Shown here in pieces: positions 51,858 through 56,160 of a DNA stretch of 64,000 nucleotides. The first letter of the stretch is position 1. Each line of letters starts with the position of its first letter. The notes beneath the pieces are model-generated. The model did not search any database. It was not told the DNA's origin and worked only from the letters and a program-made list of their open reading frames with translations. The stretch lies in the NCBI RefSeq assembly GCF_003334355.1, contig NZ_QOWP01000022.1; one strand, written 5' to 3'. A program made the position numbers and the translations under genes. The stretch is from Escherichia coli (GTDB taxonomy: Bacteria > Pseudomonadota > Gammaproteobacteria > Enterobacterales > Enterobacteriaceae).

Positions 51858-53107
<1,250 letters not shown>

Positions 53108-53284
53108 TAAAGTAAGTAACTGGTTAATTTACATTCTGGTCGCGTGCGCAAATACGCTTTTCCTCACACAGTTGTCAAGTGTTACGTTTAGATAATTGCT
53201 ATCCGGAAAAGCATCTGCTATTTATAGCGGCCTCATTTTTCCCCCGAACATGGGGATCGATAGTGCGTGTTAAGGAGAAGCAAC

Positions 53285-53740
53285 ATGCAAGAAGGGCAAA
53301 ACCGTAAAACATCGTCCCTGAGTATTCTCGCCATCGCTGGGGTGGAACCATATCAGGAGAAGCCGGGCGAAGAGTATATGAATGAAGCCCAGCTGGCGCA
53401 CTTCCGTCGTATTCTGGAAGCATGGCGTAATCAACTCAGGGATGAAGTCGATCGCACCGTTACACATATGCAGGATGAAGCAGCCAACTTCCCGGACCCG
53501 GTAGACCGTGCAGCCCAGGAAGAAGAGTTCAGCCTCGAACTGCGTAACCGCGATCGCGAGCGTAAGCTGATCAAAAAGATCGAGAAGACGCTGAAAAAAG
53601 TGGAAGACGAAGATTTCGGCTACTGCGAATCCTGCGGTGTTGAAATTGGTATTCGCCGTCTGGAAGCGCGCCCGACAGCCGATCTGTGCATCGACTGCAA
53701 AACGCTGGCTGAAATTCGCGAAAAACAGATGGCTGGCTAA
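53285..53740 (+). CDS. dksA: RNA polymerase-binding transcription factor DksA
   Basis: [19 protein letters not shown]... with C4 zinc finger [25 protein letters not shown]; start trimmed (151 aa). Confidence 0.97.
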
Positions 53741-53768
53741 TTACAGCCGTTCCATCACGTTTACCACA

Positions 53769-53797
53769 GGCGGGAAATGCTCCCGCCTTATTTTTTG
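53769..53797 (+). terminator. intrinsic terminator downstream of dksA, immediately upstream of gluQ
   Basis: ggcgggaaatgctcccgcc followed by ttattttttg. Confidence 0.75.
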
Positions 53798-53806
53798 TTC
53801 AAAGAG

Positions 53807-54703
53807 ATGACAGACACACACTATATTGGCCGCTTCGCCCCCTCTCCTTCCGGCGAGCTTCATTTTGGTTCTCTGATTGCTGCGCTTGGCAGCTATTTGC
53901 AGGCTCGCGCCCGGCAAGGTTGCTGGCTGGTACGTATAGAAGATATCGACCCGCCTCGTGAAGTTCCCGGTGCCGCAGAAACTATCCTGCGCCAGCTGGA
54001 ACATTACGGCCTGCACTGGGACGGCGATGTTCTCTGGCAATCGCAACGTCACCACGCCTATCGCGAAGCACTCGCCTGGTTACGTGAGCAAGGGCTAAGT
54101 TATTACTGCACCTGCACGCGTGCGCGTATTCAAAGCATTGGCGGTATTTACGACGGTCATTGCCGGGAGTTGCATCATGGACCAGACAACGCCGCAGTGC
54201 GTATCCGCCAGCAGCATCCGGTCACCCAGTTTACTGACCTGCTGCGAGGCATTATTCACGCCGACGAAAAACTGGCACGGGAAGATTTTATTATTCATCG
54301 CCGTGATGGTTTGTTTGCCTATAACCTGGCGGTGGTGGTGGATGATCACTTCCAGGGCGTGAGCGAAATTGTCCGCGGGGCAGATTTGATCGAACCGACA
54401 GTGCGGCAAATCTCGCTGTACCAGCTTTTTGGCTGGAAAGTGCCAGATTACATTCATCTGCCGCTGGCGCTTAATCCACAAGGCGCTAAACTTTCCAAGC
54501 AGAATCATGCGCCTGCGTTGCCGAAAGGCGATCCACGCCCGGTACTAATCGCGGCACTTCAATTTCTGGGGCAGCAGGCAGAAGCACACTGGCAGGATTT
54601 CAGCGTCGAGCAAATCCTTCAGTCAGCCGTCAAAAACTGGCGGCTTACCGCAGTGCCTGAGTCGGCAATTGTAAATTCAACATTCTCAAATGCGTCATGC
54701 TGA
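53807..54703 (+). CDS. gluQ: glutamyl-Q tRNA(Asp) synthetase (YadB)
   Basis: Class I aaRS-like [26 protein letters not shown]...; start at 53807 chosen because the upstream in-frame ATG at 53777 lies inside the dksA terminator; start uncertain. Confidence 0.85.
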
Positions 54704-54762
54704 GCTATGATTAGCCGCTATTTTTTTGTCCTGAATGATGTTTGACACTACCGAGGTGTACT

Positions 54763-56160
54763 ATTTTTACCCGAGTCGCTAATTTTTGCCGCAAGGTGCT
54801 AAGCCGCGAGGAAAGCGAGGCTGAACAGGCAGTCGCCCGTCCACAGGTGACGGTGATCCCGCGTGAGCAGCATGCTATTTCCCGCAAAGATATCAGTGAA
54901 AATGCCCTGAAGGTAATGTACAGGCTCAATAAAGCGGGATACGAAGCCTGGCTGGTTGGCGGCGGCGTGCGCGACCTGTTACTTGGCAAAAAGCCGAAAG
55001 ACTTTGACGTAACCACTAACGCCACGCCTGAGCAGGTGCGCAAACTGTTCCGTAACTGCCGCCTGGTGGGTCGCCGTTTCCGTCTGGCTCATGTGATGTT
55101 TGGCCCGGAGATTATCGAAGTTGCGACCTTCCGTGGACACCACGAAGGTAACGTCAGCGACCGCACGACCTCCCAACGCGGGCAAAACGGCATGTTGCTG
55201 CGCGACAACATTTTCGGCTCCATCGAAGAAGACGCCCAGCGCCGCGATTTCACTATCAACAGCCTGTATTACAGCGTAGCGGATTTTACCGTCCGTGATT
55301 ACGTTGGCGGTATGAAGGATCTGAAGGACGGCGTTATCCGTCTGATTGGTAACCCGGAAACGCGCTACCGTGAAGATCCGGTACGTATGCTGCGCGCGGT
55401 ACGTTTTGCCGCCAAATTGGGTATGCGCATCAGCCCGGAAACCGCAGAACCGATCCCTCGCCTCGCTACCCTGCTGAACGATATCCCACCGGCACGCCTG
55501 TTTGAAGAATCGCTTAAACTGCTACAAGCGGGCTACGGTTACGAAACCTATAAGCTGCTGTGTGAATATCATCTGTTCCAGCCGCTGTTCCCGACCATTA
55601 CCCGCTACTTCACGGAAAATGGCGACAGCCCGATGGAGCGGATCATTGAACAGGTGCTGAAGAATACCGATACGCGTATCCATAACGATATGCGCGTGAA
55701 CCCGGCGTTCCTGTTTGCCGCCATGTTCTGGTACCCACTGCTGGAGACGGCACAGAAGATCGCCCAGGAAAGCGGCCTGACCTATCACGACGCTTTCGCG
55801 CTGGCGATGAACGACGTGCTGGACGAAGCCTGCCGTTCACTGGCAATCCCGAAACGTCTGACGACGTTAACCCGCGATATCTGGCAGTTGCAGTTGCGTA
55901 TGTCCCGACGTCAGGGTAAACGTGCATGGAAACTGCTGGAGCATCCTAAGTTCCGTGCGGCTTATGACCTGTTGGCCTTGCGAGCTGAAGTTGAACGTAA
56001 CGCTGAACTGCAGCGTCTGGTGAAATGGTGGGGTGAGTTCCAGGTTTCCGCGCCACCAGACCAAAAAGGGATGCTCAACGAGCTGGATGAAGAACCGTCA
56101 CCGCGTCGTCGTACTCGTCGTCCACGCAAACGCGCACCACGTCGTGAGGGTACCGCATGA
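54763..56160 (+). CDS. pcnB: poly(A) polymerase I (non-AUG start)
   Basis: Recognised PcnB; no ATG or GTG precedes the conserved N-terminus [19 protein letters not shown]; start placed at the ATT codon at 54763 (465 aa). Confidence 0.88.

Follow-up and report, generated by a model that had tools for sequence, protein, structure and literature searches.

Leaky terminators between co-transcribed genes are known from T1, which precedes dnaG in the rpsU-dnaG-rpoD operon, and from recA-recX (cited in PMC3542578). In both, the downstream gene is expressed from read-through only and carries an unusual or weak ribosome-binding site, as in dksA-gluQ. The same element as the one analyzed here has been described at the nearly identical locus of a sister lineage, S. 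flexneri 2457T, where dksA and gluQ-rs are co-transcribed and RT-PCR yields a product spanning both genes (Caballero et al., BMC Microbiol 2012; 12:226; PMC3542578). In that work, a fusion without the dksA promoters showed baseline activity, lacZ expression was 10-fold lower when the intergenic region was present, and mutations in the stem raised it more than 2-fold (PMC3542578). The first AUG of S. flexneri gluQ-rs lies in the hairpin loop, and 27 nt separate this codon from the second AUG downstream. Edman sequencing of His-tagged GluQ-RS gave TDTQYIGRFAP, placing the N-terminus at the second Met, a start that Caballero et al. describe as having no obvious Shine-Dalgarno (SD) sequence (PMC3542578); this Edman and reporter work concerns S. 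flexneri and not the strain analyzed here, and the N-terminus was read from protein made from a T7 overexpression plasmid. A terminator hairpin directly before a queuosine-related coding region, as at gluQ, is also found in the preQ1 riboswitches of queuosine genes.

The E. coli locus resembles these systems and departs from each of them. It involves different genes from rpsU-dnaG-rpoD and recA-recX, and it has an in-frame decoy ATG in the loop that misled annotation. Unlike the preQ1 riboswitches, the gluQ hairpin has no aptamer, no antiterminator pairing and no Rfam match. Compared with the S. flexneri protein, GluQ has His for Gln at residue 5 (MTDTH vs MTDTQ) and a few other substitutions, with no functional difference apparent.

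Layout of the dksA-gluQ region

The window is the whole stretch of DNA analyzed, 64,000 nt of an E. coli contig. According to its open reading frames and the RefSeq annotation of strain A34, the local gene order is sfsA, dksA, gluQ and pcnB, all on the plus strand. Over positions 53100-54900, the sequence matches strain A34 at 100% identity and nearly all of 5,425 complete genomes at 95-99%. The features on which the analysis turns are as follows.

53285-53740, plus strand: coding sequence of dksA (151 aa), the upstream gene; transcription of the operon starts from its promoters (open reading frame; annotated in RefSeq for strain A34, which is identical).
53768-53788, plus strand: terminator stem-loop AGGCGGGA-AATGC-TCCCGCCT, core GGCGGG/CCCGCC at 53769-53787 (pairing, free energy, conservation, S. 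flexneri mutagenesis).
53777-53779, plus strand: non-functional in-frame ATG in the hairpin loop, opening a 308-aa reading frame; its SD-like sequence, AGGCGGG (53768-53774), forms the stem's 5' arm.
53789-53799, plus strand: T-run (U-tract) of the terminator (sequence; K-12 Term-seq 3' end at window position 53792).
53807-54703, plus strand: gluQ (gluQRS, formerly yadB) coding sequence, 298 aa, without a SD sequence (RefSeq, PDB, Edman sequencing, N-terminomics, homologue clusters).

The dksA stop codon occupies 53738-53740, and the hairpin lies 28 nt after it. DksA itself is 83-100% identical across 80 loci.

Several further signals lie around these features. In the sfsA-dksA spacer or dksA leader, 53215-53240 contains a small hairpin, CTGCTATTTATAGCGG, followed by CCTCATTTTT; it matches an 'orphan' 3' end at 160652(-) in K-12 Term-seq data (PMC7815308), at about window position 53237, and RIL-seq tables contain an entry 'dksA.sfsA.IGT' for this spacer or leader side. 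This hairpin may terminate sfsA transcripts or act as an attenuator within the dksA leader. On the minus strand, a terminator-like hairpin (GATGGAACGGCTGTAATTAGCCAGCCATC, then TGTTTTT) lies across the dksA stop codon at 53720-53748, probably by chance, because no gene converges there. At the other end of the region, the RefSeq start of pcnB is an ATT codon at 54763 (465 aa), and the longest open reading frame begins at a TTG at 54742 (472 aa). A non-canonical AUU start has previously been reported for pcnB. The end of gluQ (54683-54730) contains a promoter-like TTCTCA-17-TATGAT, and a run of seven T stands right behind the gluQ stop, just upstream of pcnB; pcnB expression signals may overlap the 3' end of gluQ.

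An intrinsic terminator between dksA and gluQ

Counted with its flanking A-T pair, the stem covers 53768-53788 and comprises 8 pairs, 6 of them G-C, around a loop of 5 nt. The core consists of GGCGGG (53769-53774), the loop AAATGC and CCCGCC, which ends at 53787. On the 3' side of CCCGCC lies TTATTTTTTG (53788-53797); the sequence 3' of 53788 is TATTTTTTGTT, and the T-run TTATTTTTTGTT directly abuts the stem. The computed free energy of the hairpin is -14.5 kcal/mol, with a stem base-pair probability of ~1 in the predicted fold. A loose terminator-pattern scan of 3 kb returned 5 sites against 3.7 in shuffles, which by itself is no enrichment. A strict scan of both strands of the whole 64 kb window, demanding a hairpin of -10 kcal/mol or lower plus a T-run, returned 15 sites in total, with the dksA-gluQ hairpin among the cleanest. 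A REP-like repeated element was rejected, as the hairpin 19-mer occurs only once in the window, even at 3 mismatches. Folding of the read-through RNA predicts a weak helix between the U-tract (53789-53796) and AAGAGAUG (53802-53809) over the true start codon, at -2.9 kcal/mol alone. This second hairpin is probably incidental, because it is predicted only in Escherichia-like sequences, and we claim no function for it.

Published transcript data locate termination at this hairpin. In E. coli K-12 grown in LB to OD 0.4, Term-seq detected a 3' end at 160097(-), represented by 3.1 million reads (Adams et al. 2021, PMC7815308). Coordinate conversion places it at window position 53792, in the T-run 4 nt past the stem, and K-12-type E. 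coli sequence is identical to the window over both hairpin and T-run. The 3' end is insensitive to bicyclomycin (Rho score 1.16, 'No'), scores 7.47 as an intrinsic terminator, where the threshold is 3.0, and RNA coverage falls across it from 250 upstream to 62 downstream (PMC7815308). Judged by its stem, its U-tract, the 3' end formed in vivo, Rho independence and the effect on downstream expression, the dksA-gluQ hairpin is an intrinsic (Rho-independent) terminator. The fraction of polymerases that read through is known only roughly, from a 10-fold drop in the S. flexneri reporters and a ~4-fold drop in K-12 coverage. The original prediction had placed an intrinsic terminator at 53769-53797 and made gluQ expression dependent on read-through from dksA. 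Its coordinates all hold, with the 8-bp stem, the T-run and the K-12 3' end in place, and the dependence is borne out by the S. flexneri fusions (PMC3542578) and by K-12 Term-seq (PMC7815308). Reporter fusions with and without the hairpin, proposed there as a check, have been published for S. flexneri and agree (PMC3542578).

If gluQ had its own promoter in or just past the spacer, the terminator would instead insulate gluQ from dksA. We found a weak sigma-70-like match, TTCAAA-18-TATATT, at 53798-53827; however, because this match extends across the start codon, RNA initiated from it would not carry the ATG, and sigma-70-like matches occur here at chance level (3 found vs 2.3 expected). The baseline activity of the S. 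flexneri fusion without dksA promoters and the RT-PCR product across both genes (PMC3542578) also speak against such a promoter, which we regard as scarcely credible. It has also to be asked whether the abundant 3' end belongs to a stable fragment of the dksA 3'-UTR that works as an Hfq-dependent small RNA, with termination a by-product. The Term-seq count of 3.1 million is among the largest in the table (PMC7815308), and Hfq typically binds a hairpin with a U-tail behind it. High dksA expression alone nevertheless accounts for the count, and the RIL-seq-based small RNA prediction tables, which have no entry for the dksA 3' end or for gluQ, give only 'dksA.sfsA.IGT' on the leader side, with a probability of ~0.002. 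We therefore consider a small RNA highly improbable and retain the reading of the hairpin as a leaky terminator through which gluQ is transcribed.

Conservation across genera and the question of regulated read-through

We collected 89 dksA loci, 74 of which have gluQ directly downstream, and scored the intervening sequence for hairpins that have a T-rich tail and a free energy of -12 kcal/mol or below.

Enterobacteriaceae, 35 loci: hairpin with T-rich tail in 31/35, with the start no more than 35 nt away in 30.
Other Enterobacterales, 31 loci: hairpin with T-rich tail in 7/31.
Vibrio, Photobacterium and Shewanella, 8 loci: 7/8, in the form of unrelated GC hairpins plus T-runs in the corresponding position.

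The arrangement is thus not universal, since most Enterobacterales outside the Enterobacteriaceae (Yersinia, Serratia, Photorhabdus, Proteus) have no canonical terminator by the criteria used here. Two exceptions within the Enterobacteriaceae comparison were observed: in Kosakonia cowanii (L025), the start is preceded at 49 nt by another hairpin of greater strength (GACGCCCCGC...GCGGGGCGTC), and in the metagenome-assembled genome OH_SBB_50 (L016), the core is degraded (GGCGGG...CCCTCGCC) and the spacer is 172 nt long. In 15 of the 89 loci, gluQ was undetected downstream of dksA (L033, L038, L039, L041, L042, L044, L046, L062, L069, L072-L074, L078, L080 and L083). These are mostly Pantoea, Erwinia, Tatumella and Rosenbergiella, with further cases in Morganella, Moellerella and insect symbionts; at least one of the 15 sequences, L046, stops ~70 nt past dksA and is uninformative on the absence of gluQ.

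Pairing is maintained among the 31 distinct hairpin variants: 82.9% of cells pair, vs ~52% with the partners slid, and there are 20 double-sided changes, vs 9.5 in shuffles. All of the variation, including the compensatory changes, falls in the extension pairs on the inner and outer sides of the core. The sequence upstream of the hairpin is unconserved between genera.

These data bear on whether the hairpin is a regulated attenuator, at which growth phase or stress would tune read-through, and with it the amount of GluQRS, via a protein or ligand acting on the conserved structure, an idea raised by Caballero et al. themselves (PMC3542578). In S. flexneri, the intergenic RT-PCR product rose 20-fold in stationary phase while the dksA and gluQ amplicons rose 1.3-fold (PMC3542578), yet end-point RT-PCR is weak quantitative evidence. 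The Term-seq count at 160097(-) was 3.1 million in LB at OD 0.4 vs 0.25 million in a second condition (PMC7815308), a ~12-fold difference between counts that are not normalized between conditions. The GGCGGG/CCCGCC core is kept in 31 distinct Enterobacteriaceae-type hairpin-region sequences as the loop and flanks drift. However, G-C pairs beside the U-tract are expected to matter most for any terminator, and the invariance of the core is partly circular and not evidence of a binding site, because the loci were selected by that motif. Rfam at E ≤ 1 over 52000-56000 returned nothing but a chance snoRNA match, so no riboswitch or known small RNA is indicated there. The predicted ensemble contains no antiterminator pairing or competing helix, and a riboswitch search by Caballero et al. 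was negative (PMC3542578). Across Rfam, the fold and the comparison of genera, we found neither the conserved aptamer nor the mutually exclusive structures of a riboswitch or ligand-controlled attenuator. Regulation of this kind is compatible with constitutive leakiness, to which it would add an extra layer of control, and we consider it possible but unlikely.

The start codon of gluQ

Two in-frame ATG codons precede the conserved part of gluQ. The upstream one, at 53777, lies wholly inside the 5-nt loop, is unpaired in the predicted fold and opens the longest gluQ reading frame (53777-54703, 308 aa); the downstream one, at 53807, is 18 nt past the stem and gives 298 aa. Translation from the loop ATG would yield the 308-aa protein of K-12 GenBank/UniProt. 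This start has the longest reading frame, an unpaired ATG and the only SD-like sequence, AGGCGGG, 6 nt before it with a duplex energy of -6.3 kcal/mol. That sequence is, however, the 5' arm of the -14.5 kcal/mol stem, and the computed cost of opening the ribosome footprint is 15-18 kcal/mol at 53777 vs ~5.7 kcal/mol at 53807. We infer that sequestration of its SD-like sequence in the stem keeps the loop ATG idle. The SD duplex at 53807 is only -0.9 kcal/mol, the weakest among 43 annotated genes in the surrounding 50 kb (median -5.2 kcal/mol), and the A/U-rich leader presumably lets initiation occur at 53807 without a SD sequence.

The protein data point to 53807. In addition to the Edman result in S. 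flexneri, K-12 N-terminomics reports MTDTQYIGR as an 'N-terminal truncation (10aa)', from 308 to 298 aa (TRAINSPOTTER 2026, PMC13245402, Table S1). Only the short form was thus recovered by either method: Table S1 has no row for the long N-terminus and gives no SD proxy (PMC13245402). Its row for gluQ MTDTQYIGR is without Ribo-RET or Ribo-seq support (PMC13245402), probably because expression is low. A minor 308-aa proteoform may accompany the 298-aa form below detection. In the match to PDB 1nzj/4a91 (E = 2.6e-201), residues 11-308 of the long reading frame align to chain residues 1-298, so that the extension lies outside the crystallized, active enzyme. On sequence grounds, the gluQ product is identified as GluQRS (tRNA glutamyl-Q(34) synthetase, YadB) in its 298-aa form.

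Comparison of start positions among the 120 best GluQ cluster representatives gave the same picture. A Met exactly 5 residues before YIGRF is the start in 91 of them. Longer models have unrelated N-terminal extensions, e.g. MKRLQQAGLSPPVHFYIK, which we read as translated GC hairpin and T-run, and the 10 extra GluQ residues are unconserved as protein. Each of the 35 Enterobacteriaceae loci has an ATG located 3-7 codons ahead of a Y-x-GRF motif, and in all 35 the SD duplex at the gluQ start is weaker than -2 kcal/mol. An upstream in-frame ATG in the spacer is found in only 6/35, at varying positions, and several species have an in-frame stop between hairpin and gluQ start. Among the loci compared, the loop ATG is confined to E. 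coli and E. albertii and is missing from all other genera. Even the divergent E. coli AF16 (94.9% identical) lacks it, with the loop AATTAC, and has stem, T-run and downstream ATG intact.

A start at 53777 is thus already largely refuted, and we give it almost no credence. The original prediction had the longest reading frame begin at 53777 inside the hairpin and a 298-aa protein begin at 53807, and both positions are exact in the translated reading frames. It had further proposed the downstream ATG as the probable true start, which Edman sequencing, K-12 N-terminomics, the 298-aa crystal form, RefSeq and the comparative analysis all support; the N-terminal proteomics suggested there as a check corresponds to the published N-terminomics and agrees with this start (PMC13245402). 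Its description of the extension as annotated is right for K-12 GenBank/UniProt (308 aa) and wrong for RefSeq/PGAP: there, gluQRS of strain A34, whose sequence is identical, begins at 53807 (298 aa), as it does in two further E. coli genomes.

Discussion

We conclude with high confidence that the hairpin is a leaky intrinsic dksA terminator inside a dksA-gluQ operon, that read-through supplies the gluQ mRNA, and that translation starts at 53807 and not at 53777. Polymerase from the dksA promoters mostly halts in the T-run behind the GC hairpin. The minority that reads through, very roughly a tenth to a quarter, is the sole source of gluQ mRNA, and initiation on these transcripts at the ATG at 53807 gives the 298-aa GluQRS. 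Two steps thus limit gluQ expression: termination, and then weak initiation at a start without a SD sequence. Termination, the lack of a promoter of its own and the N-terminus have each been shown by published experiment. The terminator, the dependence on read-through and the downstream start are already published and in current RefSeq, so the finding is correct but ordinary. In the literature on GluQ-RS expression, we did not find later mechanistic work.

A more speculative possibility, which we consider doubtful, is that one sequence does three jobs, terminating dksA transcription, burying the decoy SD sequence and AUG, and offering ribosomes a SD-independent landing site, with read-through rising in stationary phase. 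The landing site may be the U-tract and the A-rich spacer that follows it, and may depend on ribosomal protein S1. If true, GluQRS would be coupled to DksA, and to the stringent response, in a ratio that could be tuned. A SD-less start beside a terminator occurs in Enterobacteriaceae and, with unrelated hairpins, in Vibrio, Photobacterium and Shewanella, a pattern that selection for the architecture could explain.

For annotation, the results mean that the 308-aa K-12 GenBank/UniProt model of gluQ is 10 codons too long, and that the 3' end at 160097(-), labeled internal to gluQ in the Term-seq data because the 308-aa annotation was used, is the dksA terminator. For the biology of the organism, the locus is an example of a tRNA-modification enzyme whose level a leaky terminator and a SD-less start hold low and in fixed proportion to DksA, the stringent-response factor.
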